From positions 2,145 through 44,602 of the forward strand of contig CAZOLB010000002.1 of NCBI GenBank assembly GCA_964580825.1: a DNA stretch of 42,458 bases, read 5' to 3'. The DNA comes from an uncultured Gammaproteobacteria bacterium. Its GTDB lineage: Bacteria > Patescibacteriota > Patescibacteriia > UBA2591 > UBA6264. Shown here piece after piece: positions 2,646-42,093 of the stretch. Made by a program: the position numbers and the translations under genes. Below the pieces are notes generated by a model. The model was not told the DNA's origin and did no database searches. It saw nothing but the letters and a program-made list of their open reading frames with translations. Each line of letters begins with the position of its first letter. The stretch's first letter is position 1.

Positions 2646-2658
2646 TTTAAAATTTTAT

Positions 2659-7376: not shown

Positions 7377-7870
7377 GGCTTAAGTGGGCTAGCGACCGCG
7401 CTTATCCGCTTTGCGGGTAAGTGAGGAAAGTCCGAACACTCCCCCGCCCCTTCTTAAATACGGAAATCAGCCGGAGTTGAAAAAATTTTACTCTATCCAA
7501 ATAAAAAAATATTTACGGTCTGTATTTAAGAAGGAGCGGGGAGGCGGGTAGCGGGTAACGCCCGTCGCCGATTTTGTCCGCAAGACAAAATCGGCAGAGG
7601 TGCGAACAGAAACGCTGGAGGAGAAATCCAAAAGAAACCTGTATCCTTGAAAAACTCGGATAAGTTCAGCAGGTTGACCTCGATTATAAAAGGATAGAAA
7701 AATCGAGATGAAACGGCTAAATCCTTACCTGGGTGAAAGGCCAAAAAAAATCCCTGAATTGAAAAATTCAAGGAAGGTAGGCCGCTTGAGGCCAGCCGCA
7801 AGACTGGTCCTAGATAAATGGTCGCCCCTTTTTAAGGGAAACAGAATTCGGCTTATGACCCACTTAAGCC
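7377..7870 (+). ncRNA. rnpB: RNase P RNA
   Basis: P1 GGCTTAAGTGGG/CCCACTTAAGCC. Conserved GAGGAAAGTCCG, ACAGAAA, TGAAACGG, AGATAAATGGTCGC, ACAGAATTCGGCTTA. Confidence 0.95.
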
Positions 7871-7878
7871 TATTTTTA

Positions 7879-13821: not shown

Positions 13822-14292
13822 CTAATCATCAAGCCCTGTTTGGCGTCTTAGCCGTTTTTTACCCGAATGCTCCTTTTTATCCCGCAATCTCTTCTCCACC
13901 GCTCCTTGTCCGGGGCGAGACGGAATTCTTTCTTTAACCGGAGTTAAGGCGAAATTCACTATTTCCCGCAATTTTTCAATAACCCGTTGTTTGTTTTGCT
14001 CCTGAGATCTTGTTTCCTGGGAATAAATAATAAGATTACCCTCTTTATCAAGGCGTTGGGAAAAAACAGAGATTATTTTCTGTTTTTGTTCTTCTGACAA
14101 AACTTCCGACCGTTCTATATTCCAAATCAACATTGTTTTAGTTTCTCTTTTGTTGACGTTCTGTCCTCCGGGACCGCTGGAACCGGAAGTAATTATCCTA
14201 AACTCTCTATCGGGAATAACTATATCCTGGTCCGGAAAGGACTCCCCTTCCCAATTGTCCTTAAAAATTTTTTCCGGCGTTAACATAGGCAT
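13822..14292 (-). CDS. arfB: Alternative ribosome-rescue peptidyl-tRNA hydrolase ArfB (YaeJ)
   Basis: SSGPGGQNVNK, RSQEQNK, basic C-tail KRLRDKKEHSGKKRLR. Confidence 0.9.
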   Translation of the reverse strand: MPMLTPEKIFKDNWEGESFPDQDIVIPDREFRIITSGSSGPGGQNVNKRETKTMLIWNIERSEVLSEEQKQKIISVFSQRLDKEGNLIIYSQETRSQEQNKQRVIEKLREIVNFALTPVKERIPSRPGQGAVEKRLRDKKEHSGKKRLRRQTGLDD

Positions 14293-26428: not shown

Positions 26429-28705
26429 TTATCGTTTATCATGGCTATATCTCGAAGGCCGTCGCGAACTGCCGGAAGCATAAGGGGAAAGACGCGCTCC
26501 TTCGCGGCGCGGCCGAAAGCCCGGTCGGGAACTCGGACGAGGTTTAGGGCCAACCGCCGATAAATCCATGGTCAAATTGACTCTTCCTTGCTTGTCAATT
26601 TCGATTATTTTTACCGGAACAATATCGCCTATTTTAACTAAATCACTCGGATGCTCAACGCGATAATCCGCCATATCGGAAACATGAACCATTCCTTCTT
26701 GGCCGGGAACAAGTTCCATAAAAGCGCCAAAATCCATAATTCTGGTCACTTTTCCTTGAAAAATCTCCCCCACTTTAAATTCCCGAGTGATATTTTTCAC
26801 CCAGTCAGTGGCTTTGCTCAACGAGTCGCTGTCCGGCGAAGTAATTGAAACCGTGCCATCCTGTTCGATATCAATCATCGCGCCGGTCTTGTTAATAATC
26901 TCATTGATTATCCGCCCTCCGGGACCGATGACGTCTCTTATTTTATCAGGATCGATTTTGAAAACAATAACGCGCGGGGCGTAAGGAGAGAGCTCCGGCC
27001 GCGGTTCGGCTAAAACCCGCCCCATCTCGTTTAAAATCTCCTGCCTGGCCTTGTTTGAAACTTCAAAAGATTGCTGAATAATTTCAAAGTTAAGGCCCTT
27101 TGTTTTCGTATCCATTTGAACGGCCATAATCCCGTCAGCCGTGCCGATGACTTTGAAATCCATTCCGCCGGGACCGTCCTCCAAATCCTGAATATCAGTA
27201 ATGATTTTATAACGTTCAAAACCGCTTCCTTCTTTATTTTCTTCCGAAGCCAAGCCGACGGCAATTCCGGCCACCGGTTTCTTAATCGGCATGCCGGCGT
27301 CCATCGCCGCTAAAACCGAAGCGCAGACCGAAGCCATCGAAGTCGAACCGTTTGAAGAAAGAACTTCCGAAACGATTCTAATCGTATAAGGAAACACTTC
27401 TTTCTCGGGTATAATCGGCAGTAATCCTTTCTCCACCAAAGCTCCATGCCCGGTTTCCCTTCTTGAAGTCGATTTGGAATTTTTGACTTCGCCAGAACAA
27501 AACGGAGGAAAATTATAATGATGCATAAACCTTTTTCTCCCGCTTTCCTCCATCGTATCCAAATATTGCTCCGCGCCTGGAGCGCCTAAAGTAACTACGG
27601 AAAGAACCTGAGTTTCTCCACGGCTAAAAATGGCCGAACCGTGAACTCGGGGTAAAACGCCGACTTGACAATCAATTGGCCGAATTTGATCAAGTTTTCG
27701 GCCGTCAACTCGCCGGTCATTGTCCAAAATCGCCCGACTGACTTGGGTATAAATCAATTTATTGGCGTATTCAATCGCTTTAGCCCTTTTTTCCTTACCA
27801 ATTTGCTTTTCAATCAGGGCCTGCTCCAAACGCACGCGGATATTTTCCGCCGCTCCCAAGCGATCTTCTTTGGTTTTTAAAATATTTTTAAATAAATACT
27901 CCGGCGCTTCTTTATTGATTATCTCTTCGGTTATTCTTTTAAGCTCTTGTTTGGCCAAAACCTCTTCGCTGGTTAAGTCGCCGATCAAAGGAATTTTCTT
28001 TTTCCCCACCTTTTCCTGTATCTCCTTGATGAAACTATTAATCTTCTCAAAGTGTTTGACGCTGTATTTAATCGCCTCAAACATCAAGTCTTCTTTTATT
28101 TCTCTGGCGCCGGCTTCCAACATTAAAATCCGTCCTTGAGCGCCACAGACGACCAAATCCAAGTCGCTCTTTGCTCTGGCCTCATAAGTCGGATTTAAAA
28201 CCCATTCTCCTTTCCGCTCCGGAACGGTTGGCTGTTCGGCTGAAGCAATCAAGCCGACCCTGACCCCGGCCACCGGCCCATCCCAAGGAATATCGGAAAT
28301 GGATAAAGCGAGAGAAGCGGCCCAAAGGGCGACAATATCCGGATCATTTTCCTGGTCGACCGAAAGAACCGTCAAAATAATCTGAACCGCGCGACGACTT
28401 TCGTCGTCAAAAAGCGGCCTAATTGAACGATCAACTAAACGGCCGGACAAAATGGCCTCATCAGGCGGTTTAGTTTCTCTTTTAATAAAACGCGATCCTT
28501 TTATTTTCCCCGCGGCGTAAAACCGCTCCTCAAATTCGACTGACAAAGGAAAATAATCCAGGTCTCCCTGCTCTTCTCCTAAAACCGCTGTCGCCAGCAC
28601 CGTCGTTTCGCCGTATTGGACAAGACAGCTTCCATTGGCTTGTCCGGCGACTTCGTCGGTCTTGGCTATTAATTTTCTCCCCCCTATCTCCGTTTCAAAC
28701 TGCAT
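26429..28705 (-). CDS. pnp: Polyribonucleotide nucleotidyltransferase
   Basis: AAGKIKGSRFIKRE, DRSIRPLF, HYNFPP, RRETGHG, SNGSTS, GMDFKV, KH and S1 domains. ATG 28705 has a GAGGTG SD. Confidence 0.97.
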   Translation of the reverse strand: MQFETEIGGRKLIAKTDEVAGQANGSCLVQYGETTVLATAVLGEEQGDLDYFPLSVEFEERFYAAGKIKGSRFIKRETKPPDEAILSGRLVDRSIRPLFDDESRRAVQIILTVLSVDQENDPDIVALWAASLALSISDIPWDGPVAGVRVGLIASAEQPTVPERKGEWVLNPTYEARAKSDLDLVVCGAQGRILMLEAGAREIKEDLMFEAIKYSVKHFEKINSFIKEIQEKVGKKKIPLIGDLTSEEVLAKQELKRITEEIINKEAPEYLFKNILKTKEDRLGAAENIRVRLEQALIEKQIGKEKRAKAIEYANKLIYTQVSRAILDNDRRVDGRKLDQIRPIDCQVGVLPRVHGSAIFSRGETQVLSVVTLGAPGAEQYLDTMEESGRKRFMHHYNFPPFCSGEVKNSKSTSRRETGHGALVEKGLLPIIPEKEVFPYTIRIVSEVLSSNGSTSMASVCASVLAAMDAGMPIKKPVAGIAVGLASEENKEGSGFERYKIITDIQDLEDGPGGMDFKVIGTADGIMAVQMDTKTKGLNFEIIQQSFEVSNKARQEILNEMGRVLAEPRPELSPYAPRVIVFKIDPDKIRDVIGPGGRIINEIINKTGAMIDIEQDGTVSITSPDSDSLSKATDWVKNITREFKVGEIFQGKVTRIMDFGAFMELVPGQEGMVHVSDMADYRVEHPSDLVKIGDIVPVKIIEIDKQGRVNLTMDLSAVGPKPRPSSRPGFRPRREGARLSPYASGSSRRPSRYSHDKR

Positions 28706-28882
28706 AATTTTCACCTCGCGACGCCAAATATACCAATACATGCTAATGGCGCGAATATCTTTTACGTCCATTTTACCGATAAACGATTCGCATCATTGAC
28801 ATCTATTCGTATATCAGCGTCAATTTATTTTTTAATTAATTAACTTAAATATTTTATTTCCATTCTTAATTTTAGCGAACCT

Positions 28883-30223: not shown

Positions 30224-30772
30224 TTACGAAACCGATTTCTGTGCCCGCGATTTTACGAACCTTCCTTCTTTCGCGGCGTCTATTAGAAATCTCTTTTTCG
30301 ACTTACTCAAATCAGTGTACTCGTCAACCACTTCAATCAGTTTGGAAGAAGTGGTTTCGCCAAAAGCCATCACTTCAACCCGACATCCTTTGTTTTCGCG
30401 CAGATAAAAAATCAAAGGGATATAATCCCCGTCGCCGGTAACCAAAACGATAGTATCCAGTTTATCCGCCAATTTAATGGCGTCAATGGCTAAACCGACG
30501 TCCCAATCCGCCTTTTTCATTCCTCCGGGAAAAATCTGCAAATCCTTGATTTTTAACTCAAATCCCTGTTTAAAAATGGCGTCGAAAAAATTCTGTTCCT
30601 CCCGCGTTTTGGATCTGATAACATAAGCAATCGCCCGAATAAGCTGACGTTCGGCCACCGCAGTTTCCAAAACCTTGGCAAAATTGACATTCGCTCCGTA
30701 CAGATTCTTAGCCGAATGATACATGTTTTGGACATCGACAAAAATCCCAACTCTCTGATTCTTATATTTCAT
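30224..30772 (-). CDS. NYN domain (LabA/DUF88, PIN-like) protein
   Basis: IFVDVQN, KADWDVGLAID, LVTGDGDYIP, GCRVEV. Confidence 0.92.
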   Translation of the reverse strand: MKYKNQRVGIFVDVQNMYHSAKNLYGANVNFAKVLETAVAERQLIRAIAYVIRSKTREEQNFFDAIFKQGFELKIKDLQIFPGGMKKADWDVGLAIDAIKLADKLDTIVLVTGDGDYIPLIFYLRENKGCRVEVMAFGETTSSKLIEVVDEYTDLSKSKKRFLIDAAKEGRFVKSRAQKSVS

Positions 30773-31671: not shown

Positions 31672-32652
31672 ATGCTTCAAAATTTAAAAATTTTGATCAC
31701 GGAATTTCTGGAACATTTGGAGATCGAAAAAGGCGCCAGCCAATTGACAATAAGAAATTATCATTTTTATTTAAAAAGATTTCTTGACCAAACGGCGGCC
31801 GAATCTCCGGACCAAATCACCACCGAAACGACCAGAAAGTACCGTTTGTGGCTGTCCCGCCTTAAAAATCCGCGTGGCGGCAATCTTTCTCCGGCTACGC
31901 AAAACTATCACTTGATCGCCCTGAGGGTTTTTCTGAAATATTTGGCTAAACGCGACATTAAATCTCTGGCGCCGGAAAAAATCGACCTGGCTAAAACCGG
32001 CGAAAGACAAATTTCTTTTTTAGAAGGAAACGATTTGGAAAAATTCCTGGCGGCGCCGCTGACGCCGATCAAAAACAAAAACAGCGAAATCATTCAGTTA
32101 AGAGACAAATCTATTTTGGAACTGCTTTTCTCAACCGGTCTGCGGGTCAGCGAATTGGCCAATTTAAAAAAAGAAGACATTAATCTGGAAAAGGATGAAT
32201 TCTCCGTCCGCGGCAAAGGCAGTCGGTACCGGGTAGTTTTTCTTTCCCATCAGGCGAAATACTGGCTTAAAAAATATCTTGAAAAACGCCTTGACTTGGA
32301 ACCGTTTTTGTTTATCCGCCATGACCGGGCGGCAAACAAAAAAACGACTAATAATAAAAATGTTCCTTTTGAAAATCTGACTCCCCGCTCCGTTCAACGA
32401 CTGGTCAAAAGATACGCCAAAATGGCTGGCTTAACTAAAAAAATCACCCCCCACAGCCTGAGGCATTCTTACGGCACCGACCTTTTGGCCGGCGGGGCCG
32501 ACATTCGGGCGGTCCAAGAACTGCTGGGGCACAAAAATATCACTACGACCCAAATTTATACCCACATTACCGACCAACACCTCAAAGAGGTTTATCAGGC
32601 CTTTCACGGCCGACGGCGAAAAACACGGGAAAACCAACAACACTCCCTGTAG
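31672..32652 (+). CDS. Tyrosine recombinase, XerC/XerD family
   Basis: SAM-like N-domain; TGLRVSEL, RGKG, HSLRHS, LLGH, TQIYTH catalytic set complete. Confidence 0.9.
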   Translation: MLQNLKILITEFLEHLEIEKGASQLTIRNYHFYLKRFLDQTAAESPDQITTETTRKYRLWLSRLKNPRGGNLSPATQNYHLIALRVFLKYLAKRDIKSLAPEKIDLAKTGERQISFLEGNDLEKFLAAPLTPIKNKNSEIIQLRDKSILELLFSTGLRVSELANLKKEDINLEKDEFSVRGKGSRYRVVFLSHQAKYWLKKYLEKRLDLEPFLFIRHDRAANKKTTNNKNVPFENLTPRSVQRLVKRYAKMAGLTKKITPHSLRHSYGTDLLAGGADIRAVQELLGHKNITTTQIYTHITDQHLKEVYQAFHGRRRKTRENQQHSL

Positions 32653-32717
32653 TTCAACGGACAGAACGAGGGCCTTCTAAGCCCTAGATAGAGGTCCGAC
32701 TCCTCTCAGGGAGACCA
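32643..32717 (+). tRNA. tRNA-Arg(TCT)
   Basis: Acceptor CTCCCTG/CAGGGAG-A-CCA. Anticodon arm AGGGC-CTTCTAA-GCCCT. T arm AGAGG-TCCGACT-CCTCT. Confidence 0.92.
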
Positions 32718-32743
32718 AAATTTAAAATTAAATCTTCGAAAAT

Positions 32744-32815
32744 GGTGGCTATAGTTTAATGGTAAAACTGCGGATTGTGGCTCCGCTGACGAGAGTTCGA
32801 TTCTCTCTAGCCACC
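32744..32815 (+). tRNA. tRNA-His(GTG)
   Basis: G-1 plus GTGGCTA/TAGCCAC-C. Anticodon arm GCGGA-TTGTGGC-TCCGC. T arm GAGAG-TTCGATT-CTCTC. Confidence 0.95.
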
Positions 32816-32904
32816 CCTTTTAATGTTTATACAAAACAAAAAAATCGGAATTTTTCCAACTTTTTTGTTTTCCTCAAATCAAATCCATCGGCCGGCCAAT
32901 AATA

Positions 32905-32932
32905 TTGACAACTCGCAAGAAAATACTAAAAT
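32905..32932 (+). promoter_or_regulatory. Sigma70 promoter for the ORF at 32979
   Basis: TTGACA-16 bp-TAAAAT; GGGGGTGG SD-like sequence before the ATG. Confidence 0.7.
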
Positions 32933-32978
32933 TAAATAAAGATCTTTTAAAACTTTTAAAAAACAATGGGGGTGGATT

Positions 32979-33272
32979 ATGAGAAAAGAAAGGAAGATTG
33001 TCCTTTTTGATTGTGAGAAAGAAATAATCGAAATATTAAACTCATGCCTGGAGAAAAACCTAACTGTCAACATCACCTATGCCGAGGATTCTAAAAGCCG
33101 CGAATGCCAGATCACGGGGAAAATCAGATCGATAAAAAGAATAAATGGAGAAAACAGCCAATACTACTGCAATCTGCTAACGCCAAACAATCAATTCATC
33201 TGTTGTCGCCTTACAGGGATTCGAAAAATCGAACAAATTCTCGAAGAGAACGGTTTCCGCCATTCTCAGTAA
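32979..33272 (+). CDS. Hypothetical 97-aa protein, possibly YolD/WYL-like beta-barrel
   Basis: Has its own promoter, SD and terminator. Pattern LNSCLEKNLTVNITY...ITGKIRSI...LTGIRKIE. Confidence 0.7.
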   Translation: MRKERKIVLFDCEKEIIEILNSCLEKNLTVNITYAEDSKSRECQITGKIRSIKRINGENSQYYCNLLTPNNQFICCRLTGIRKIEQILEENGFRHSQ

Positions 33273-33275
33273 TTT

Positions 33276-33308
33276 ATAAAAACAGACCTCCTGGGGGTCT
33301 GTTTTTAT
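33276..33308. terminator. Bidirectional intrinsic terminator
   Basis: ATAAAAACAGACCTC-CTG-GGGGTCTGTTTTTAT between convergent genes. Confidence 0.8.
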
Positions 33309-36271
33309 TTTTGGCGGTATTGGCAAATATCCCTAAAATCGCAAAACTGGCAAAGGCGGCTTGGGGTCGGCAGAAAATCGCTCTTTTTTATTTTCTCAAT
33401 AGTCGAAACGATTTCCTCTTCCGTTTCCCGTAAATCCTTTTCTTTGCCTAAAAAAGAAATTTTCTCTCCTGTTTCTAAATAATAAAAAGTCAAACGGCAA
33501 ACCGGCTTGTCAAATACCTCAGTCAATTTCTCCGCTGCCAACTGATAAATATAAAGTTGTCTTTTCTTCTCCAAATCGAGATTTTTACTCCCTTCTTCGC
33601 CGGTCTTATAATCAATAAGTTCATAGCCGTCTTCATTTTCATCGACTCGATCAATATAGCCCTTGATAATATTCCCGGCCAATTTAAAATTAAATTCTTT
33701 CTCCAAATATTTTATTTTCGGCCTGTTTTTTTCTAAATCGTCATAAAACGCTTTTAACGCCAATCTTCCTTTCTCTTTGTATTTTTTTTGGTGTTCCTTG
33801 TCTTTGTACCACTCGTCAATCCATGACTGCTCGTAAATCTTTACTAAATCATCAAAGTCAAGCCCCTCTTTTTTCTCATCCCTCTTGCCAAAAAGGTTTT
33901 TTTGGCCGATTCTTTCCCTCTCTCGCCAAAATTGACAAAACTGATAAAGCGCCTGATGCAAACTTTTACCAAAACTGAGTGCATATCTTCCGCGCCGAGG
34001 AATATTCAGAACAAAGGCGAATTTGTACTGCAAGGGACAGGCATTAAAAGCGGCCAACTGGGAAAAACTGAATCTTATGGGTAGAATCGAAGAAGATCTG
34101 CTCTTTTCTTTTTTTAACGTCTCGTTTTTATTGAAAATTGCCGCTGGCCGGCTTTCTTTTTTACTCTCTTTATCCGCCAATCCCAGTTCATACAAAAAGC
34201 GAGAAGGTTTTTTTGCCGTTTTTCCCCCGCAATCTTCAGCCGAAGTCAAATATAATTCTTTTTTAGCCCGAGTCAAAGCGACATAAAATAATCTCCTTTC
34301 CTCTTGCAAATGGACATCACCGACGGGAATAATTTCTTTAAGCAATCCCTTGGGCAATTCTATGGTTTCCCGGCGTTCAATGCTCGGAAATCTTTTGTCT
34401 ACCAGATTGACGATAAAAACATACTTAAATTCCAAACCCTTAACTCCATGAATAGTACTCACTTTTACCGATTCCGGACCGCCTTCCATCTCCGCCTCCA
34501 AACTTCCGGTGTCGCCGCTAGCAATCATCAAATCAATCATTCTGGTAAAATTGCCGATTGATTTGTCGAAGTTAACCGTTTCGAAATTCTCCACTTTTTT
34601 AAAAAATTGATTGAGCCAAAAAATGTTTTCTCTGGTTTTTAGGGCGTCTTTTTCTTCTTCTTGAGATAATATTTTCAAATAGTTCGAATCCTCTAAAAAA
34701 GAGAATATCACTTTGCCGACGCTTTCGGTTCTAGCCAACTCCGCGTGTTTTTGAATCAAAGACAAAAGAACGTTTAAATACTCGGTTGTTTTGGAGGAAA
34801 TCTTAGGAACGAGATTTGATTTCTGCATCGCCTCGTAAAGCGACCATGATTTTTTATAAGCGAAATTTGTTAAATTAACCAAATCGTCGCCGCTGACCTT
34901 GCCGTAGAAAATCGGCGAATTTAAAATCCGATAAACCGCCGGACTCTCATGATAATTATCGAGCAACCGCAAATAAGAAAGAATATCCAGAACAATCGGC
35001 TTGGAAAACAGCCCTGAACGCCCTAAAAATTGATGGGGAATGCCGATCGAATCCAAAGCCTGGGCGAAAATTTCCGCTTGATTATTGGCTCGGGCCAAAA
35101 CGGCAAAATCATTCCAACTCGCCCCTGCGTCTTTCTTTTTTAGTTTAACGATTTCTCGCGCCACCGCTCCCGCTTCGTCCTCCTGGCTCCGAAAACGGAA
35201 ATAAGCAATTTTCCCCTTTTCTTTGTCTTTAGCCTTAAGTTTTTTAACCACTTCTTTTTCTTTGGCTTCCAATCTTTCCGGATTGTTCAATTGGATAAAA
35301 TTGTAAGCCAAATCAAGGATATTTTGGCAGGAACGATAATTCTCGGTTAAAACCGCCCGTTCCGACCGGGGATAATCGTTTTTGAATTGGAGGACATTAT
35401 TATAAGAAGCGCCTCGCCAACGATAAATCGCCTGATCATCGTCGGAAACGACTGAAAGATTATTTTTTGGCGCGGCTAATAACTGCAATAATTTATACTG
35501 AGCCCAATTAGTGTCCTGGAACTCGTCAACTAAAATATACTTAAACTGCCGGCGGTATTTCTCCAAAATCTGCGGCCGGCAAGTAAAAAGTTTCAAAGAA
35601 TAATTTATTAAATCTCCGAAATCCAAAGCGTTATTTTCCAAAAGCAATTGCTGATAAAGATGATAAGCTTCGGCCACCTCTTTTAAGCGGCTGGTTTCTT
35701 GATCCAGTTGTTCGCCGGACATCATCGTATCTTTGTCCATTTTTAAGTTCTCGATGTATGCCAAATACTCCTCCGGACTAATCGATTCGTCTTTGGCTCG
35801 GGAAAAATGCTTAACCAAACTCTGGATGAATTTTGTCGGATTGCCCAAGGGCCGATAATAATCCAAACTGAATCGATTAAAATTTTCTTGGACTAAAAAA
35901 CACTGCTGGGATTCGTTTAAAAGTTTAAAATTCAAAGGCAAGCCGATGTCCAGAGCATATTCCTGCAAAATCCTTTCGCAAAAAGAATGAAAAGTAGAAA
36001 TCCAAAGATCGACATAACCATAGGGCAGCAAACGATCGACTCTTTCCTCCATTTCTTGGGCCGCCTTTTCCGTAAAAGTTAAAGCTAAAATCTCGTCGGT
36101 TTTTGCCAAACCGTTTAAAACCAGCCAGGCAATTCTTCTGGTAATCACCGCAGTTTTACCCGTACCAGCGCCGGCAATAATCAATAACGGCCCGTCGCCG
36201 TAAATCACCGCCCGCTTTTGTTCTGAATTTAATCCTTTTAAAATTTTATCCGCCAATTCTTTTTCCGACAT
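33305..36271 (-). CDS. UvrD/PcrA-type SF1A helicase with C-terminal PD-(D/E)XK nuclease domain
   Basis: AGAGTGKT, TFTEKAA, DEFQD, NYRS, TIHGVKGLEF, EERRLFYVALTRA. Nuclease GYIDRVD/IDYKTG/QLYIY with Cys in CP and CQFCDFRDIC. Confidence 0.9.
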   Translation of the reverse strand: MSEKELADKILKGLNSEQKRAVIYGDGPLLIIAGAGTGKTAVITRRIAWLVLNGLAKTDEILALTFTEKAAQEMEERVDRLLPYGYVDLWISTFHSFCERILQEYALDIGLPLNFKLLNESQQCFLVQENFNRFSLDYYRPLGNPTKFIQSLVKHFSRAKDESISPEEYLAYIENLKMDKDTMMSGEQLDQETSRLKEVAEAYHLYQQLLLENNALDFGDLINYSLKLFTCRPQILEKYRRQFKYILVDEFQDTNWAQYKLLQLLAAPKNNLSVVSDDDQAIYRWRGASYNNVLQFKNDYPRSERAVLTENYRSCQNILDLAYNFIQLNNPERLEAKEKEVVKKLKAKDKEKGKIAYFRFRSQEDEAGAVAREIVKLKKKDAGASWNDFAVLARANNQAEIFAQALDSIGIPHQFLGRSGLFSKPIVLDILSYLRLLDNYHESPAVYRILNSPIFYGKVSGDDLVNLTNFAYKKSWSLYEAMQKSNLVPKISSKTTEYLNVLLSLIQKHAELARTESVGKVIFSFLEDSNYLKILSQEEEKDALKTRENIFWLNQFFKKVENFETVNFDKSIGNFTRMIDLMIASGDTGSLEAEMEGGPESVKVSTIHGVKGLEFKYVFIVNLVDKRFPSIERRETIELPKGLLKEIIPVGDVHLQEERRLFYVALTRAKKELYLTSAEDCGGKTAKKPSRFLYELGLADKESKKESRPAAIFNKNETLKKEKSRSSSILPIRFSFSQLAAFNACPLQYKFAFVLNIPRRGRYALSFGKSLHQALYQFCQFWRERERIGQKNLFGKRDEKKEGLDFDDLVKIYEQSWIDEWYKDKEHQKKYKEKGRLALKAFYDDLEKNRPKIKYLEKEFNFKLAGNIIKGYIDRVDENEDGYELIDYKTGEEGSKNLDLEKKRQLYIYQLAAEKLTEVFDKPVCRLTFYYLETGEKISFLGKEKDLRETEEEIVSTIEKIKKSDFLPTPSRLCQFCDFRDICQYRQK

Positions 36272-36281
36272 AACAACATTC

Positions 36282-37085
36282 TTATAATTTTATATTGAAT
36301 AACGCCTGCGCGTTTTTGGTCGTTTGTTCCACGACTTTCTCAAAAGAAATTTTTTTAATTTCGGCTATTTTTTGCGCGATAAAACGGACGCAAATCGGTT
36401 CGTTTCTCTGTCCCCGGCGCGGTTCCGGCGCCAAATAAGGTGAATCGGTTTCCAATAAAATCCTGTCCAAAGGCGTCTTTTCCACCGCCGTCAGAACCTC
36501 GAAGTCGACGTTTTTAAAAGTAATCGGGCCGTCGAAGCCGACATAAAAACCGAGGTCTAAAAATTCCCTGGCAGTTTCCCAATCAGCGGAGAAACAATGA
36601 ATCACCCCATTAGAGACAAAGTCTCTATCGGAGCAAACCCCTTTAATTATTTCTAATAATTCTAAATAAGCGTCTTTTGGGTTTTCTTTGTCGCCCCGGC
36701 AATGAAGAATTATCGGCAGGTCAAATTTTCGAGCCAAATCCGCATGTTTTAAAAAAATTCGCTTTTGTTTTTCAACGTCCTTTTTCGAATGATAAAAATC
36801 AAGGCCGGTCTCGCCGACGGCTTTAATCCTGGTTTTGTTCTTTTTAATCAAGTTTTCGTATTTTTCCTCTTCGAAGTCCTCGTCGTTAACGTGGATCGGA
36901 TGCAAACCAATGGCGGCGTAACAACCACTGAAGTCCGCCGCGATAGCCATCGCTTTTTGGCTGGTTAAAAAATTCGAGCCGACGTTAATCACGGCTCTTA
37001 ATCCATTTTTAAAATTATCGCTAATCACCGCTTGATAGTCGTCTTTAAAAGACTGAAAATTCAAATGAGCGTGGGTGTCAATCAT
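36282..37085 (-). CDS. tatD: TatD family nuclease
   Basis: DTHAHL, GLHP, GETGLDF, ILHCR, IHCFS, LETDSPYLAP. Confidence 0.93.
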   Translation of the reverse strand: MIDTHAHLNFQSFKDDYQAVISDNFKNGLRAVINVGSNFLTSQKAMAIAADFSGCYAAIGLHPIHVNDEDFEEEKYENLIKKNKTRIKAVGETGLDFYHSKKDVEKQKRIFLKHADLARKFDLPIILHCRGDKENPKDAYLELLEIIKGVCSDRDFVSNGVIHCFSADWETAREFLDLGFYVGFDGPITFKNVDFEVLTAVEKTPLDRILLETDSPYLAPEPRRGQRNEPICVRFIAQKIAEIKKISFEKVVEQTTKNAQALFNIKL

Positions 37086-37153
37086 AAATAAAAAATAAAA
37101 TATAAAAAATAAAAAATTAAGGAACTAAAAAAACGAAAAAATAAGAAATCAAT

Positions 37154-37624
37154 TTATTTCCGACTCTTGTCAAAGCCGATTCCTAAATTTTTCGGGCCGA
37201 AAACCAAGGGTAAAAGTTCGGAAATTTTGGCAACAACGATTTTGCTTTTGTCAAAATTCGACATTACCACCTCTAAATCATTTCCCGAGATCTCGGAAAA
37301 CTCGAATAATGTCTGACGGCAAGCGCCACAAGGACCGAATACTCTTTTATTTGCCCCACCCCGGACAATCACGGCTACGGCTCTAAAGCGCCGCTGCCCC
37401 AAAACATTGGCCCGGGCAAGCGCCGCCTGCTCAGCGCAAACTGTCAAACGATAAGACGCGTTTTCCATATTTGAACCGGTAATAATTCGACCGCTTCGAG
37501 TTAAAAGCGCGGCGCCGACGGCAAAATGGGAATAAGGACAATAAGAAGTTTTTACCGCTTTTTCCGCCGCTTTTAACAATTTCTGATATTGTTTGCTCAA
37601 TTTTTTAAATTCAACTGTTTTCAT
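37154..37624 (-). CDS. cdd: Cytidine deaminase (homotetrameric type)
   Basis: PYSHFAVGAA, NMENASY, CAE, PCGACRQ. Confidence 0.93.
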   Translation of the reverse strand: MKTVEFKKLSKQYQKLLKAAEKAVKTSYCPYSHFAVGAALLTRSGRIITGSNMENASYRLTVCAEQAALARANVLGQRRFRAVAVIVRGGANKRVFGPCGACRQTLFEFSEISGNDLEVVMSNFDKSKIVVAKISELLPLVFGPKNLGIGFDKSRK

Positions 37625-37756
37625 ATTCACATTCTATCATATTTAAAATAAATAAAAAGGGGACTAAATTTCGTCATCCCTAAATTAACCTCCAATCTTA
37701 ATAGACTTTTTAAAGGGCGTAAAAAATATTTTAAAACGCCTTTGAACGCATTTTCT

Positions 37757-37987
37757 CTAATAACCCAGATATTTTTGGGCTAAGGCCAAAGAAATTGCGC
37801 CCCAGAGCAAGGAAAAAACCATCATCAAACGGCCGTCTTTTTTAAGCTCTGGCTGCCGCCACAAAACAAAACTATAAATCAACCCCGCGGGCAAAGGATT
37901 AAAAATCGTGATTAGCAGCCCAACATTAATCAATTTATACTTTGAAATTAAAATTCCATCCTGATTTTTATCCGTTTTTTGCAGCAT
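37757..37987 (-). CDS. Small hypothetical membrane protein
   Basis: 76 aa, 2-3 hydrophobic segments, co-oriented with neighbours, ATG start. Confidence 0.6.
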   Translation of the reverse strand: MLQKTDKNQDGILISKYKLINVGLLITIFNPLPAGLIYSFVLWRQPELKKDGRLMMVFSLLWGAISLALAQKYLGY

Positions 37988-38161
37988 AAAATTTAAATTC
38001 GGTCTAAAATAAAAACCGAAATTTTATTCTCAAGTAAATATTTTTGAATCAGCGGAATCAAATGTCCGACCGCTAAAATTAAAACAAATGAGAAACGTCG
38101 TTTCCGTTTCTTTTTTTCTTTTTTATTCGGCTTAATTCTTTAAAATCGAAAGAATCGACTC

Positions 38162-38419
38162 CTATTCAGCCGCCAAATACACTTTATCGCCCTCTTTGAC
38201 GACGCCGTCCAATTTTAAACCGATCGCTTCTCCCTTTTTCGCCTTTTTAATACTTTCGTGTTCAACCTGCATTGATTCAACTGTCTGTTCAAAGTCCCGA
38301 TCGCCGCCGATAATATGTATTTTATCTCCGACTTTCAAACCGGCGATCAATTCAATCACGCCAACGCCGATTTTCCCAAAATAATGGGTAATTTTGCCAA
38401 TTTGTTTTTCTTTAGCCAT
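38162..38419 (-). CDS. Small translation-factor-like beta-barrel protein (EF-Tu domain II / U32 C-terminal-like)
   Basis: IGKITHYFGKIGVGVI.L...LKVGD.I...FEQ.VESMQ..H..I..AKKG..IGLK. Confidence 0.8.
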   Translation of the reverse strand: MAKEKQIGKITHYFGKIGVGVIELIAGLKVGDKIHIIGGDRDFEQTVESMQVEHESIKKAKKGEAIGLKLDGVVKEGDKVYLAAE

Positions 38420-38577
38420 ATATTTCCTCGCTTTGCTCAATCAAATATAAGATGACGGAGCAAAACTAAAAAATTATCAATCAACAATATTATAATTAAA
38501 CCCCTTTAAAAAATCAAGAGAATTTTAGATTTTTTGAAAATTGAAAATTAAAAATTAAAAATTTAAATGAAGTGTTC

Positions 38578-40026
38578 TTATTCTCCTTTAATTACCGCTA
38601 AAGGAACTAATCTCGCCACCTTTTTAGCCAAACCGGCGCGCTCAACTGTTTCCACTATCTGATCCACATCTTTATAAGCCGCCGGCGCTTCTTCGGCAAT
38701 ACCGCGCATTGAACGGCACTTGACCAAAATTCCTTTTTCTTTCAAATGTTTGACCACTTCTTCTCCTCTTATCGCTCCGATGGCCGCATGTCTCGACATT
38801 TTTCTTCCGGCTCCGTGATTAACCGAATAAAAACTCTCTTTTCCCTTTTCCGCGCCGACCAGAACATAAGAAGCCGTGCCCATGCTGCCGGGAATTAAAA
38901 CCGGTTGCCCGACCCGGCGATAAGCCTCGGGCAATTCGAAATGGCCTGGAGGAAAGGCCCTAGTCGCCCCCTTTCGATGAACCGCGATCTCCACTTCCTT
39001 ACCCTCAAAATCATATTTCTCTTTTTTTATGATATTATGAGCGACATCGTAAACGACCTCAAGATCCGAAATCCGATCAGTTAAAACTTCTTTCCAGGCC
39101 TTTCTGATTAAATGAGCGATCATTTGACGGTTGGCCCAGGCATAATTGGCCGCTGCCGCCGAAGCGGCTAAGCCGCGCTGCCCTTCCGGAGAGTTAAAAG
39201 GAACGCAGGCGAATTCTCGATCAGGAACCTTAATCTTATATTTATTTTGCATCAAAGGAATAAACTCTCTTAAATTATCTGTGCAAACCTGGTGTCCAAG
39301 CCCGCGCGAACCCGTATGAATCATGATTACGATTTGTCCTTCAAATAAGCCGAAAGATTTAGCGGTTTCCGCGTCAAAAACCCGCTCAACTTTTTGAATT
39401 TCCAAAAAATGATTTCCGCTTCCCAATGTCCCGACTTGGTCCCGCCCCCGGCTCTTAGCTTGCTTTGAGACGACCGAGGCGTCAGCCCAAGCCAATCGGC
39501 CGCCGGCTTCGCAATTATCCAAATCGCTTTTTGTTCCATATCCTTGCTCAACCAATTTCTGCGCTCCCCTTTCCAAAATTTCATCCACGCTGGCGACATC
39601 CAATTTAATTGACTGGCCCTGCCCTAAACCCGAAGGAACTTTTTCATAAATCTTATCGGCCAAATTTTCCAAATAAGGACCAATTTCCTCGGCGGAAAGA
39701 GACGATCTAAGCAATTTCATGCCGCAATTGACATCATAACCCTGCATGCCGGGAGAAATAATTCCTTCTGAAATTTTAATCGCCGCAACCCCGCCAATCG
39801 GACTAGCATACCCCTCGTGGCAATCGGGCATAGCCAAAGCGTATTTCTGAATCCCCGGCAAAACAGCCACATTGACTAATTGTTCAAGCGATTTATCCCG
39901 AGAAATCTGGTCTAACATTTTTTCGTCGGCGTAAATTCTGGCCGGCACCTGCATATCAGAACGAAAAGATTTAGGAATCTCCCATAAATAATCATTAATT
40001 TTTTTGAAATTTTGTCTAGTTAACAT
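38578..40026 (-). CDS. rtcB: RNA 2',3'-cyclic phosphate/3'-phosphate-5'-OH ligase RtcB
   Basis: PDCHEGY, GYDVNCG, GSGNHFLE, HTGSRG, HNI, HRKGAT, PGSMG, HGAGR, EEAPAAYK. Confidence 0.96.
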   Translation of the reverse strand: MLTRQNFKKINDYLWEIPKSFRSDMQVPARIYADEKMLDQISRDKSLEQLVNVAVLPGIQKYALAMPDCHEGYASPIGGVAAIKISEGIISPGMQGYDVNCGMKLLRSSLSAEEIGPYLENLADKIYEKVPSGLGQGQSIKLDVASVDEILERGAQKLVEQGYGTKSDLDNCEAGGRLAWADASVVSKQAKSRGRDQVGTLGSGNHFLEIQKVERVFDAETAKSFGLFEGQIVIMIHTGSRGLGHQVCTDNLREFIPLMQNKYKIKVPDREFACVPFNSPEGQRGLAASAAAANYAWANRQMIAHLIRKAWKEVLTDRISDLEVVYDVAHNIIKKEKYDFEGKEVEIAVHRKGATRAFPPGHFELPEAYRRVGQPVLIPGSMGTASYVLVGAEKGKESFYSVNHGAGRKMSRHAAIGAIRGEEVVKHLKEKGILVKCRSMRGIAEEAPAAYKDVDQIVETVERAGLAKKVARLVPLAVIKGE

Positions 40027-40052
40027 AAAGATTCTTTACTTTCGCAGAGTCT

Positions 40053-40511
40053 TTATATATCAAAAAGCACCGTCGCCTCCCAATAATCGTCGCGTTTTTT
40101 AATTTCAAGTTCGTGCCAGGTGGCCGCCTTGATTTCCGCTTGCTGCCGCGCAATTTTCCGGCCGATAATTTTACCTTTTAATTCCCGCGGCGTTAAAATT
40201 TCAAAATCAATAGCGGAATAAACTTCATCATTGACGTCGCTCAAATACAGGATTTGAGATAAAAAATCAATCAACAATGATTCCAAATTTTCCGCTTTAA
40301 GCCGAATTTCTCTGACCGTCGGCTTTTGATCCTCAAATTCGGGACGGCAAAATTCAAATATTCCTTTTAAAAAATTGGAAAACGCCTCTTTTAAATCCCG
40401 CCCTCGCGTCCTAATCTTCAAATCCGCCGCATGTTCCAGTATTTCATACTCCTTTACTTCAGGGCACTGCTTCGCCGTTTTATCGTTTTGCGTCCCGCCA
40501 GAAATTTTCAT
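40053..40511 (-). CDS. Archease
   Basis: YEILEHAADL, LLIDFLSQ, EIKAATWH, C-terminal LFDI; immediately upstream of rtcB. Start uncertain. Confidence 0.9.
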   Translation of the reverse strand: MKISGGTQNDKTAKQCPEVKEYEILEHAADLKIRTRGRDLKEAFSNFLKGIFEFCRPEFEDQKPTVREIRLKAENLESLLIDFLSQILYLSDVNDEVYSAIDFEILTPRELKGKIIGRKIARQQAEIKAATWHELEIKKRDDYWEATVLFDI

Positions 40512-40607
40512 AATTGGCTTTTGTAATATTAGATTTAAACACCCCGGCAAAAAAATTTTCTAACGGGGTTAATTTTGCCCGCCGGCTGGCGGATTGCCTT
40601 TTTAATT

Positions 40608-41291
40608 TTAGATAACGTACCGGCCGTCGTTGATTTGATCTCCGATTATAACGCCCCGATCAAGCGTAATCACCCGTTTCCTTAAAAAATTGACTATTTC
40701 CCGATTATGAGTGACTAAAAGCACAGTTGTGCCGAATTCATTGATTTTCGCCAACAACTCGACAATATCGCGGGTGGTAATCGGGTCGAGATTGCCGGTT
40801 GGCTCGTCCGCGATCAATATCTTAGGCCGATGAACCAACGACCTGGCAATAACCGCCCTTTGCGCTTCCCCGATTGAAAGCTGCCGGGGAAAATAATTAG
40901 TTTTCTTTTCCAATCCCACTATTTTTAAAACTTGGCGGACAATCGGACTTATTCGCCGACGAGGCGTACCCACCACTTCCAAAGCAAAGGCGATATTTTC
41001 GCCAATGGTCTTTTTTTCCAACAATTTAAGATCTTGAAAAACGACGCCAACCTGGCGGCGAAGCGCCGGAATTTCGCCGGGTCTGATATTGGTGATGTCC
41101 CACCCGCCAACGACTATTTTACCCCGACTCACCCGCTCCTCGGCAATTAACAATTTAATAATCGTGCTTTTGCCAGCGCCCGACTGGCCAACAATAGAAA
41201 CGAATTCTCCGGGCTGAATATGAAAAATAGCGTTACGCAAAGCGTAGATATCGGGTCGATAAAACTTAGTGACATTGACGAACTTAATCAT
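40608..41291 (-). CDS. ftsE: Cell division ABC ATPase FtsE
   Basis: MIKFVNVTKFY, GQSGAGKST, LRRQVGVVFQD, ADEPTGNLDP, GTTVLLVTH. ATG at 41291. Confidence 0.85.
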   Translation of the reverse strand: MIKFVNVTKFYRPDIYALRNAIFHIQPGEFVSIVGQSGAGKSTIIKLLIAEERVSRGKIVVGGWDITNIRPGEIPALRRQVGVVFQDLKLLEKKTIGENIAFALEVVGTPRRRISPIVRQVLKIVGLEKKTNYFPRQLSIGEAQRAVIARSLVHRPKILIADEPTGNLDPITTRDIVELLAKINEFGTTVLLVTHNREIVNFLRKRVITLDRGVIIGDQINDGRYVI

Positions 41292-41365
41292 ACTTAATTG
41301 ATATAAATAATGCGAATGCCGCAGAATAATTAAGGAATCAAAACGAGGATTTTCGCCAAAAATAC

Positions 41366-41475
41366 CCTGACCGCCATCACCAAAGCCCACGGCTGGAGTC
41401 GAACCAGTAACCTATCGCTTACGAAGCGATTGCTCTACCAATTGAGCTACGTGGGCTTAGGTCATGGCGGACAGG
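41366..41475. repeat. 19-nt imperfect inverted repeat enclosing tRNA-Thr
   Basis: 41366-41384 CCTGACCGCCATCACCAAA versus the reverse complement of 41457-41475, CCTGTCCGCCATGACCTAA (16/19). Confidence 0.8.
41384..41456 (-). tRNA. tRNA-Thr(CGT)
   Basis: GCCCACG/CGTGGGC-T. Anticodon arm ATCGC-TTCGTAA-GCGAT. T loop TTCGACT. No encoded CCA. Confidence 0.93.
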
Positions 41476-41497
41476 TCTACCACTGAACTATGTCTGC
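41476..41497 (-). pseudogene. Orphan tRNA 5' fragment (acceptor 5' strand plus most of the D arm)
   Basis: GCAGACA-TA-GTTC-AGTGGTA-GA has tRNA positions 1-22 geometry, then breaks at the inverted repeat. Confidence 0.6.
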
Positions 41498-41533
41498 ATA
41501 AACTGTAAAAAAGTTTCCCTGCCGTTTTTTCCC

Positions 41534-41608
41534 TGGAGCGAGTGAGCGGAGTCGAACCGCCGTCTTCTCCTTGGGAAGGAGATATAATAACCGTTATATT
41601 ACACTCGC
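41534..41608 (-). tRNA. tRNA-Gly(CCC)
   Basis: GCGAGTG/CACTCGC-T-CCA. Anticodon arm TCTCC-TTCCCAA-GGAGA. T arm GGCGG-TTCGACT-CCGCT. Confidence 0.93.
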
Positions 41609-42093
41609 AATACCCTTTTTAATTTCCTCACGGCTTTTAATTTTTTAAAATATGAGACCCTGTCAGTAATGAGCACTCCATCCAAATGGTCAATTTCATG
41701 CTGAAAAACTCGAGCTAATAAGCCATCGGCTTTAATCTTAACCCTTTGCTTTTGCTCCAATAAATAACCCTCTATTTCTATTTCTCTGGCTCTTTTTATT
41801 TTTAAAACTACTTTAGGCAAACTTAAACAGCCCTCATAATCATATTGAGATTCTTTTGATTTGCCGATAATTCGAGGATTAATTAAAGAAAAAGACCTTT
41901 GGCCGATATCCGCAATGATAATCCGCCTTTTATCTCCCACTTGAGGCGCGGCCAAACCAATGCCTTTTTCTTGACGCATAATTTCCAGCATCGCCCTAGC
42001 AAGCATCTCGACTTCCAGATTCATTTCTCCGACTTCCTGGCATTTTTGACGCAGAAGCGGATCCCCATATTTTATTATTTTCAGCAAAGACAT
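41599..42093 (-). CDS. def: Peptide deformylase
   Basis: GIGLAAPQVG, EGCLS, QHEIDHLDG. Confidence 0.96.
   Translation of the reverse strand: MSLLKIIKYGDPLLRQKCQEVGEMNLEVEMLARAMLEIMRQEKGIGLAAPQVGDKRRIIIADIGQRSFSLINPRIIGKSKESQYDYEGCLSLPKVVLKIKRAREIEIEGYLLEQKQRVKIKADGLLARVFQHEIDHLDGVLITDRVSYFKKLKAVRKLKRVLRV

Follow-up and report, generated by a model that had tools for sequence, protein, structure and literature searches.

The analysed stretch of DNA (the window, 42,458 nt) comes from the 644 kb genome of an ultra-small bacterium of the Patescibacteria, labelled G000 among the genomes compared, and carries two tRNA clusters, each of which opens inside the 3′-end of a protein-coding gene. On the + strand, the CDS of a xerC/xerD-like tyrosine recombinase (31672..32652, 326 aa in the ORF list; Pfam Phage_integrase, 1.1e-42; NCBIfam XerD/XerC, 236 bits, under the equivalog cut-offs), here called xerC, lacks a stop codon of its own and runs into tRNA-Arg(TCT) (32643..32717; RF00005, 65.0 bits), the first tRNA of a cluster continued by tRNA-His(GTG) (32745..32817). 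Direct reading of the sequence together with frame analysis gave a 10 nt overlap (32643..32652), in which tRNA positions 1–7 supply the final base of a His codon and the Ser and Leu codons of xerC, and positions 8–10 are its TAG stop (32650-32652). On the − strand, the peptide deformylase gene def (41599..42093, 164 aa in the ORF list, C-terminus ...LRV; Pfam, 1.2e-46; NCBIfam TIGR00079, 149.7 bits against a cut-off of 103.95) likewise enters tRNA-Gly(CCC) (41608..41534; RF00005, 62.2 bits) by 10 nt (41599..41608), its TAA stop (41601-41599) again being positions 8–10 of the tRNA, and this junction is conserved in relatives. The second tRNA of this cluster, tRNA-Thr(CGT) (41383..41457, − strand), is followed on the same strand by genes for an FtsE-like ABC ATPase, archease and RtcB. 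Both overlapped tRNAs pass the RF00005 gathering score (29 bits) and were folded by ARAGORN into cloverleaves with TCT and CCC anticodons. By their frames and their Pfam and NCBIfam identities, xerC and def are genuine same-strand genes whose first in-frame stop lies inside the downstream tRNA, and the two borrowed stops described in an earlier, sequence-only reading of the window are thus upheld by the sequence, ARAGORN and RF00005 alike.

Across the host genome, 4 of the 46 tRNAs are entered by a genuine upstream gene, the two further cases being rplT, which stops at position 8 of a tRNA-Asp, and a small GIY-YIG gene, which stops at about position 21 of a tRNA-Glu. The stops met by an entering frame, as well as the gaps upstream, were surveyed in 182 tRNAs from five genomes of the order (the host, G009, G011, G037 and part of G002, partly tiled). 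The first in-frame stop fell before tRNA position 8 in 1.8% of the tRNA × frame combinations and exactly at position 8 in 16.3%; for the codon phase 2–4/5–7/8–10, the stop stood exactly at position 8 in 89 of the 182 tRNAs. Because stops are rare before position 8 and frequent at it, 10 nt is the shortest overlap that a tRNA normally permits, and the identical geometry of the xerC and def overlaps is not an independent coincidence. Position-8 entries made up 4/9 of the cases, compared with 16% expected from random frames (binomial P = 0.045, with gene–tRNA pairs and positions counted post hoc). Such a mild excess is compatible with purifying selection for the shortest overlap, and also with a selected geometry.

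Based on ORFs of ≥80 aa and not on curated genes, the gap survey found a same-strand ORF ending within 400 nt upstream of 121 of the 182 tRNAs. A gap of ≤12 nt or an overlap was found for 39 of them, with many gaps of 0–5 nt, one of −1 and 10 overlapping, at least two of the listed overlaps appearing spurious (an 80-aa ORF in G037 and a 114-aa ORF on contig C21 of the host). The −1 case is a tRNA-Leu(CAG) of G011, which shares only the G of TAG with the upstream ORF. In a phylum-wide sample of other families, the same measure gave 3 of 63. The packing appears unusually tight when set against this sample of the Patescibacteria and against model bacteria.

Among the relatives, the def/tRNA overlap was found at 10 of 33 loci and the rplT/tRNA overlap at 11 of 39, each in many genera of the family. 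The rplT overlap is limited to one family (f1) plus a single genome of family f4 (G023); at the L20 loci of the Patescibacteria, 6 of 80 showed an overlap, and all six match, by contig coordinates, f1 relatives already sampled. The position-8 overlap of xerC occurred in the host alone among 36 loci, so that the concern that the overlaps might be confined to this one assembly holds for xerC and fails for def and rplT, which recur across genera. The relatives' XerC proteins end in GRRRKK, and the host copy carries a TRENQQHSL tail. In nine relatives, a htpX-like gene, 294 aa long as read in G002, lies between xerC and tRNA-Arg(TCT); the host has no such gene at this locus and only a 28%-identical paralogue elsewhere. 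The comparison indicates that the host xerC overlap followed the loss of this intervening gene, that is, that it is of deletional origin.

Frames also enter tRNAs to other depths, with def stopping at position 13 in G020 and 14 in G023, xerC at position 36 in G035, and GIY-YIG genes at about positions 21 and 27, as would be expected if frame entry is unselected. On a quick single-gene tree of xerC, in which many nodes are weak, at least six state changes were counted for the rplT overlap across 30 genomes and at least five for the def overlap across 23 labelled genomes; overlap state differs within supported sister pairs, and flips recur between close relatives. In G005 and G012, def retains, as a fossil, a tail and stop derived from the tRNA (in G005 a 37/38 nt match to the 5′ half of the host tRNA), and an intact tRNA-Gly lies 59–68 nt downstream. 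These fossils indicate that the overlap was undone without harm and is unneeded. The terminal residue of def varies among relatives (V, E, G or D) in step with the acceptor stem, which marks it, on sequence grounds, as a passenger of that stem. Nevertheless, rplT and def are essential, and the persistence of their overlaps in many genera may reflect some benefit or, failing that, strong tolerance.

The RNase P RNA gene rnpB, arfB, archease and rtcB all lie in the window, as the sequence-only reading had stated and as matches to RF00010, NCBIfam and Pfam confirmed; given a genome of this small size, the sharing of 42 kb by housekeeping genes means little. The type A rnpB (7380..7871, + strand, 492 nt) was aligned to model positions 1–367 of RF00010 with 91.8 bits (E 1.7e-28) against a gathering score of 100; its catalytic core is conserved, including the GAGGAAAGUCCG and ACAGAAUUCGGCUUA blocks, and its middle is expanded and poorly aligned. 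The sequence-only reading had called its insertion unusual, but the length and low score of this RNA are typical of the order, in which full-length matches range from 315 to 574 nt and 9 of 41 genomes fall under the gathering score, and long or diverged RNase P RNAs have been described for the CPR (10.1101/2020.03.05.979740). The length of rnpB does not track the overlaps, being 371 nt in G002, which has both overlaps, and 321 nt in G014, which has the def overlap, and the rnpB–xerC distance of 17–27 kb among relatives reflects conserved backbone synteny. Elsewhere in the host genome lies rnpA (78.8 bits), and the window also encodes PNPase (26429..28771, − strand; Pfam RNase_PH, KH and S1).

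The rtcB (38578..40026, − strand; Pfam RtcB, 2.9e-165) and archease (40053..40550, − strand; Pfam Archease, 2e-31) genes form an ordinary RNA ligase pair, which lies beyond the tRNA cluster in the downstream direction and is unlinked to the overlaps. RtcB ligates 3′-phosphate or 2′,3′-cyclic phosphate ends to 5′-OH ends, and RNase P leaves 3′-OH and 5′-phosphate ends. An RtcB–PrfH repair pair was considered and rejected, as the match to TIGR03073 (release-factor-associated RtcB) reached 169.4 bits against a cut-off of 271.8, and rtcB adjoins archease and not a release-factor homologue, arfB being about 24 kb off.

The product of arfB (13822..14292, − strand, 156 aa) scored 121.8 bits against the NF006718 cut-off of 100, and by this equivalog match, its GGQ motif (SGPGGQ) and its basic C-terminal tail (KRLRDKKEHSGKKRLRRQ) it is a genuine ArfB. 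Within the order, 6 of 41 genomes yielded an ArfB, comprising 3 of the 20 with a CDS/tRNA overlap and 3 of the 21 without, and the query used returned none in the overlap-bearing G002, G003, G005, G007, G009 and G011. ArfB presence is thus unassociated with the overlaps. In contrast, tmRNA is near-universal, exceeding its cut-off in 39 of the 41 genomes. The host tmRNA (contig C3, 45938-46364; 130.7 bits against 47) encodes the tag ANRNLAFAVA, and with SmpB (174.7 bits) both components of trans-translation are present. The host ssrA heads the string ssrA-infC-rpmI-rplT-tRNA-Asp, the same one that contains the overlapped rplT. According to a survey of 15,259 genomes, arfB is found in 58% and trans-translation in >97% (PMC11633108).

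We consider that the overlaps are probably near-neutral by-products of deletional compaction in a lineage that places tRNAs directly behind protein genes. The idea that U8-A9-R10 acts as a stop trap under compaction, put forward earlier as the null hypothesis, is the best fit to the data. Deletion of a gene's own stop or spacer would let its frame run on into the tRNA, where positions 1–7 are almost stop-free and where about half of tRNAs have TAG or TAA at U8-A9-R10, so that a 10 nt overlap with a borrowed stop would be the shortest and least harmful outcome. One transcript would then carry both CDS and tRNA. On the uncut precursor, ribosomes would stop normally at the UAG or UAA encoded in the tRNA; once the tRNA has folded, RNase P (rnpB plus rnpA) would cut at tRNA +1, and the upstream mRNA would thereby lose its last 7 sense nucleotides and its stop. 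The remaining mRNA would be expected to decay from its 3′-end via PNPase, and ribosomes trapped on it could be freed by tmRNA-SmpB or, in the minority of genomes having it, by ArfB. In short, RNase P probably cuts the cotranscripts, and generic decay and rescue probably deal with what is left.

Short CDS–CDS overlaps, which arise when co-oriented genes lose the spacer between them, are tolerated and common in small genomes; unlike in those, the CDS here overlaps a structured RNA gene, and processing of that RNA would destroy the shared bases for the mRNA. In animal mitochondria, tRNAs punctuate the transcript, and Ojala-type processing leaves a partial stop (U or UA) that is completed by polyadenylation. 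The host resembles them in that same-strand tRNAs flank or overlap CDSs directly and with no spacer, and in that the mRNA 3′-end would be set where RNase P excises the tRNA, with the stop damaged or removed. It differs in being a cellular bacterium with tmRNA-SmpB and in having the stop wholly inside the tRNA: as a cut at tRNA +1 would fall 7 nt before the stop, no partial stop would be left for completion. Coliphage T5 provides a second precedent for the CDS/tRNA overlap layout already known from mitochondria, since its annotation (NC_005859) has same-strand CDSs ending 6–24 nt inside tRNAs or flush with them (T5.057/tRNA-Met, 6 nt; hegC/tRNA-Ser, 14 nt; hegD/pseudo-tRNA-Gln, 23 nt; T5.069/tRNA-Asn, 24 nt; T5.065/tRNA-Lys, flush). 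Homing-type nucleases are among the T5 overlaps, as GIY-YIG and HNH-like ORFs are in the Patescibacteria set, but unlike the T5 accessory region, the Patescibacteria overlaps hit chromosomal housekeeping genes (rplT, def and xerC), two of them conserved across genera. In E. coli secG-leuU, with a 14 nt spacer, one RNase P cut is reported to free the tRNA, after which a PNPase-type 3′ exonuclease removes the upstream mRNA, giving exonucleolytic decay with a half-life of <30 s (Mohanty and Kushner, PMC2241853). The order CDS then tRNA is the same in the host, where a single transcript and the RNase P cut would follow by analogy; secG, however, has its own stop and spacer, whereas spacers in the five-genome survey were 0–12 nt for 29 of the 182 tRNAs and negative for 10. 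Finally, tmRNA, SmpB and ArfB, the non-stop rescue factors (PMC11633108, PMC3061065) that would clear ribosomes from mRNAs cut before the stop, are all present in the host, but they are generic factors, and nothing links them specifically to the host junctions.

Regulatory coupling without a dedicated factor, in which L20 and Def output and the maturation of tRNA-Asp and tRNA-Gly limit each other, seems unlikely to us, although several observations are compatible with it. Ribosomes over tRNA nucleotides 1–10, with a footprint reaching further in, would block tRNA folding, and the RNase P cut would kill the mRNA, giving a crude link to growth rate. The long-lived overlaps do involve translation-related genes that are retained in many genera, ssrA-infC-rpmI-rplT-tRNA-Asp is a conserved same-strand string, no promoter-like site was found on the + strand from the xerC start to tRNA-Arg, def contains a single weak (9/12) promoter-like match, and the secG mRNA is reported to be destabilised by RNase P cutting downstream (PMC2241853). 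However, close relatives switch freely between overlap and gaps of 1–50 nt, the def fossils speak against any need for the overlap, and the rplT overlap has the narrow family range given above. As gaps of 0–12 nt would couple nearly as well, the overlap itself would add little. A broader version, in which tRNAs punctuate transcripts throughout the family, RNase P sets the 3′-ends of upstream mRNAs at about one fifth of tRNAs and deletes the stops of L20 and deformylase, and RNase P and tRNA folding limit these proteins through trans-translation, strikes us as rather improbable.

We give very little credence to a dedicated system as proposed in the sequence-only reading, in which a specialised RNase P would make non-stop mRNAs that ArfB, instead of tmRNA, resolves without tagging, with RtcB and archease joining in. 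Every gene named is in the window, ArfB is genuine, and stop deletion by an RNase P cut follows directly from the sequence. Yet neither ArfB presence nor rnpB length goes with the overlaps across the order, most of its genomes have tmRNA, diverged RNase P RNAs are already published for the CPR, the spacing between rnpB and xerC is mere backbone synteny, and the ends that RtcB joins differ from those RNase P produces. An artefact of assembly, base calling, or the calling of tRNAs and ORFs is scarcely credible as the source of the overlaps: the xerC overlap is known from one metagenome-assembled genome only, but its tail departs from the relatives at many bases and not by one stop-codon change, the tRNAs were called by two methods, and many genomes assembled independently show the same def and rplT junctions.

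The RNase P/ArfB/RtcB proposal in its specific form can be dropped, and compaction onto tRNAs that act as stop traps remains our preferred reading. Annotation pipelines that bar CDS/tRNA overlap will miss or truncate such genes. The layout offers a natural test case for how much non-stop mRNA is made by RNase P in bacteria and how tmRNA handles it. For the lineage itself, about one fifth of the tRNAs are packed within 12 nt of an upstream gene, and essential genes (rplT and def) whose stop is owned by the next tRNA are tolerated in free-standing bacteria, beyond organelles and phages.

At both tRNA clusters of the window, the gene upstream was found to end inside the tRNA that follows it. ARAGORN and Rfam agreed on four tRNAs: tRNA-Arg-TCT (32643-32717, + strand) and tRNA-His-GTG (32745-32817, +) in one cluster, and tRNA-Gly-CCC (41534-41608, − strand) and tRNA-Thr-CGT (41383-41457, −) in the other. 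By direct reading, the xerC/xerD-like ORF (31672-32652, +; 326 aa), which lacks a stop of its own, ends in ...CAA CAA CAC TCC CTG TAG, where the C of CAC is tRNA-Arg +1 and the TAG falls on tRNA-Arg positions 8-10 (hereafter, position 8). Similarly, the def ORF (42093-41599, −; 164 aa) ends in ...GTA TTG CGA GTG TAA, where the G of TTG is tRNA-Gly +1 and the TAA falls on tRNA-Gly positions 8-10. The identities of the window genes at these junctions are firm, and the identical 10-nt overlaps with a tRNA-supplied stop that had been proposed by the sequence-only reading were borne out at both. A possible overlap of the FtsE-like ABC ATPase gene with the 3′ end of tRNA-Thr (41291-41390, −) was rejected; its longest ORF opens at a GTG inside the tRNA, and the likely start, MIKFVNV, lies about 91 nt downstream of that GTG. 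Elsewhere in the window, a 182-aa NYN-domain (PF01936) protein, possibly an RNA nuclease, is encoded at 30224-30772(−), near pnp; its neighbours are rpsO and a 436-aa ORF that matched nothing in Pfam. A poorly coding stretch of about 950 nt between cdd and rtcB holds two short ORFs (38162-38440 and 37757-37987, both −), one with a weak EF-Tu domain-2 match (1.4e-06, under its cut-off), and may be a gene remnant.

Upstream frames running into each of the 46 tRNAs were then examined across the whole genome (G000; 644 kb in 32 contigs, 97.9% complete), and four of the tRNAs were found to be entered by real genes, namely xerC, def, rplT and a GIY-YIG gene. Three of the four stops lie at position 8, including that of rplT (L20, Pfam 6.2e-34), which ends in ...ATG GTC CGG TAG with the TAG on positions 8-10 of tRNA-Asp(GTC), while the 87-aa GIY-YIG gene (Pfam 9.7e-15) reads into tRNA-Glu and ends near position 21, on a D-loop TAG. 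Three further ORFs were dropped as probable non-genes: a low-complexity 114-aa ORF entering tRNA-Asn on contig C21 of G000, and ORFs of 80 aa and 75 aa entering tRNAs in a related genome, G037. Two atypical tRNAs were also recorded in G000. One, at C7:13301-13384(−), is an 84-nt type-II-like tRNA with anticodon UUA ('tRNA-Stop' in ARAGORN; RF00005 39 bits vs a gathering score of 29), with weak anticodon-stem pairs and an unsure anticodon call; the other, at C12:18361-18434(+), has an 8-nt anticodon loop with a four-base anticodon 'tgaa' (Ser or Phe; RF00005 51.1 bits).

The recurrence of the 10-nt overlap was evaluated on tRNAs of G000, three relatives tiled in full and a fourth tiled in part (G002: all of C1, 80 kb of C2, and 20 kb from each of C3-C5), where 190 tRNAs were called and 182 retained after leaving out eight too near contig ends. 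Among all tRNA × frame combinations, the first stop occurs before position 8 in 1.8% and at position 8 in 16.3%; in the phase with codons at 2-4, 5-7 and 8-10, a stop exactly at position 8 was found in 89/182 tRNAs. Since stops are rare before position 8 and frequent at it, 10 nt is the least overlap that a tRNA normally permits, and the same geometry in two or three genes is therefore no added coincidence. Position-8 stops made up 4/9 post-hoc events compared with 16% expected (binomial P = 0.045), an excess that is only suggestive, as kin are not independent.

Next, each protein was searched in 40 relatives (20 from the family of G000 and 20 from its order), and junctions were read in 30 loci per gene plus the remaining listed matches. 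For def/tRNA-Gly(CCC), 10 of 33 loci have the stop at position 8 (one judged by eye at a contig end), one each has it at positions 13 and 14, and two carry fossils of the overlap. For rplT/tRNA-Asp(GTC), the stop is at position 8 in 11 of 39 loci, and most of the remaining ones have gaps of 1-10 nt. For xerC/tRNA-Arg, only G000 among 36 loci has it there, and in the relative G035 the frame reads into tRNA-Arg(CCT) to position 36. Thus, the overlap is confined to this assembly for xerC, but not for def or rplT. Among L20 loci from GTDB Patescibacteria, 6/80 were overlapped and 42 lay more than 1.2 kb from any tRNA. From their contig coordinates, the six overlapped loci all seem to belong to relatives that the sampling of the family-level group f1 had already covered. 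The overlaps are real and conserved within a family-level lineage, and are not CPR-wide.

The same tRNA set also revealed very tight spacing in general. In a census based on ORFs rather than curated gene calls, an ORF on the same strand, ≥80 aa long and terminating either inside the tRNA or no more than 400 nt upstream of it, was found for 121/182 tRNAs, and in 39 of these the gap was ≤12 nt. Gaps cluster at 0-5 nt where a long gene precedes the tRNA; examples are tRNA-Leu(CAA), preceded by a 704-aa ORF, and tRNA-Gly(GCC), preceded by one of 435 aa. One gap of −1, in which the G of TAG is tRNA +1, was found in addition to 10 overlaps. This −1 case is the tRNA-Leu(CAG) at C4:9454-9540 of the relative G011, where position 1 is also the G of the TAG that ends a 571-aa ORF, and an RNase P cut would leave 'UA', an incomplete stop of mitochondrial style; the homologous junction in G000 (C9) has a 1-nt gap. 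In other Patescibacteria families (29 loci from 29 families, a sample biased to best-scoring tRNAs), gaps of ≤12 nt were found in 3/63 assessable tRNAs, one of them doubtful. The order stands out within the phylum by extreme CDS-to-tRNA packing, a continuum of which the overlaps form the far end.

Relatives were also compared for the gain and loss of overlaps. In nine relatives, an htpX-like gene (294 aa as read in G002) separates xerC from tRNA-Arg, and at the junctions that were read it stops 0-1 nt short of the tRNA; G000 lacks it at this locus, and its sole paralogue, at another place in the genome, is just 28% identical. The xerC overlap, with its new tail of 8-9 codons, is thus a recent deletion product. 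In G005 and G012, def retains the tRNA-derived tail and stop, and an intact tRNA-Gly is present 59-68 nt downstream. Between the G005 fossil and the 5′ half of the G000 tRNA-Gly, 37/38 nt are identical, and the fossil breaks just past the anticodon loop. Such tRNA 5′-half fossils were read immediately behind def (Gly-CCC; G005 locus L003, ~1977-2117) and behind xerC (Arg-TCT; G027 locus L047, ~2434-3287), in the orientation of the respective gene. Both break just past the anticodon loop and are followed, after 27 nt and ~740 nt respectively, by a distinct tRNA that is intact and shares the anticodon, a pattern suggestive of either replacement of the tRNA or an insertion at its anticodon loop. 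Mapping on a rapidly built tree of xerC alone, many of whose nodes are weak, required at least six state changes among 30 genomes for the rplT overlap and at least five among the 23 labelled genomes for the def overlap, and supported sister pairs with opposite states were found (e.g. G010/G016, G017/G020 and G000/G005).

A dedicated system, in which RNase P and ArfB resolve tRNA-punctuated mRNAs with RtcB at hand, was not supported, although rnpB, arfB, archease and rtcB do all lie within the window. The partner of RtcB is archease, not a release-factor homologue, the release-factor-associated RtcB model was not reached, and RtcB chemistry is unsuited to RNase P products. The arfB gene (13822-14292, −) scores 121.8 bits vs 100 for the NCBIfam equivalog and encodes the GGQ motif, but strong ArfB matches occur in only 6/41 genomes (one query; genomes 75-100% complete), and no correlation with the overlaps was found (3/20 genomes having any overlap vs 3/21 having none). 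In a broader survey, arfB was present in 58% of 15,259 genomes (PMC11633108). tmRNA was above cut-off in 39/41 genomes, and G000 has tmRNA (tag ANRNLAFAVA), SmpB and RnpA. In rnpB (7380-7871, +; 492 nt, conserved core aligned, 91.8 bits vs the Rfam gathering score of 100), where an unusual insertion had been claimed, ~290 nt separate conserved blocks of the core, far more than the model predicts. All 41 genomes have an RNase P RNA (full-length matches 315-574 nt, nine under the gathering score); long RNAs recur in the order, and RNA length shows no relation to the overlaps. CPR RNase P RNAs that are diverged and extended have been described earlier (10.1101/2020.03.05.979740). That the named genes share 42 kb is no evidence in a genome of 644 kb, and the rnpB-xerC distance of 17-27 kb, kept in many relatives, reflects backbone synteny. 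A role in C-terminal identity is unlikely, because the last Def residue (V, E, G or D among relatives) just follows the acceptor stem.

The junctions lie in same-strand strings, VanZ-xerC-tRNA-Arg-tRNA-His, rplM-def-tRNA-Gly-tRNA-Thr-ABC ATPase-archease-rtcB, and the tight ssrA-infC-rpmI-rplT-tRNA-Asp (G000 C3:44600-46364(−), locus L062); as judged by coordinates, tmRNA adjoins rplT in most of the 40 relatives. Promoter and terminator scans, using sigma-70 and intrinsic-terminator consensus from which CPR promoters may differ, gave no firm signal, and between CDS and tRNA there is no room and no strong sigma-70-like site. Given this arrangement, the most economical assumption is that CDS and tRNA are cotranscribed. 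Ribosomes translating this precursor would then terminate at the borrowed UAG or UAA, and RNase P would subsequently release the tRNA, leaving an mRNA without seven sense nucleotides and the stop. The cut mRNA would be expected to decay fast from its 3′ end (PNPase is encoded in the window); the half-life of E. coli secG mRNA, once RNase P has cut, is under 30 s (PMC2241853). Late ribosomes would be cleared by trans-translation, or by ArfB where present. With no more than about one such rescue per transcript to pay for, the overlaps would be cheap enough to be tolerated.

Some tRNA junctions also carry selfish-looking small nucleases. Half of the small GIY-YIG ORFs in five genomes (5/10) lie −29 to +65 nt from a same-strand tRNA start, encode 81-94 aa, and each precede a different tRNA (Glu, Phe, Asn, Arg-CCT and Gln): G000 C5:30222-30485(−) upstream of tRNA-Glu, G011 C3:14869-15129 (locus L117) upstream of tRNA-Phe, G011 C1:514-777, G037 C1:166419-166682 and G037 C2:22257-22502. 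This suggests mobile nuclease genes homing beside tRNAs or riding tRNA transcripts, comparable to the tRNA region of phage T5. In G037, a 109-aa ORF rich in Cys/His motifs has its stop on tRNA-Met positions 8-10; it had no Pfam match at E up to 0.01, and its motifs can be read as HNH-like.

The layout at the G000 junctions is shared with mitochondria, in their gene/tRNA overlaps and tRNA punctuation, and with coliphage T5, in whose tRNA region annotated CDSs run 6-24 nt into tRNAs before ending. It is also an extreme form of the mixed mRNA-tRNA operons of E. coli. In open-access papers and bioRxiv, no description of CDS stops inside tRNA genes was found for Patescibacteria or other cellular bacteria, and a check of PMC6581868 for overlap turned up nothing relevant. 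The conserved rplT and def cases, together with the lineage-wide packing, are the points worth a note.
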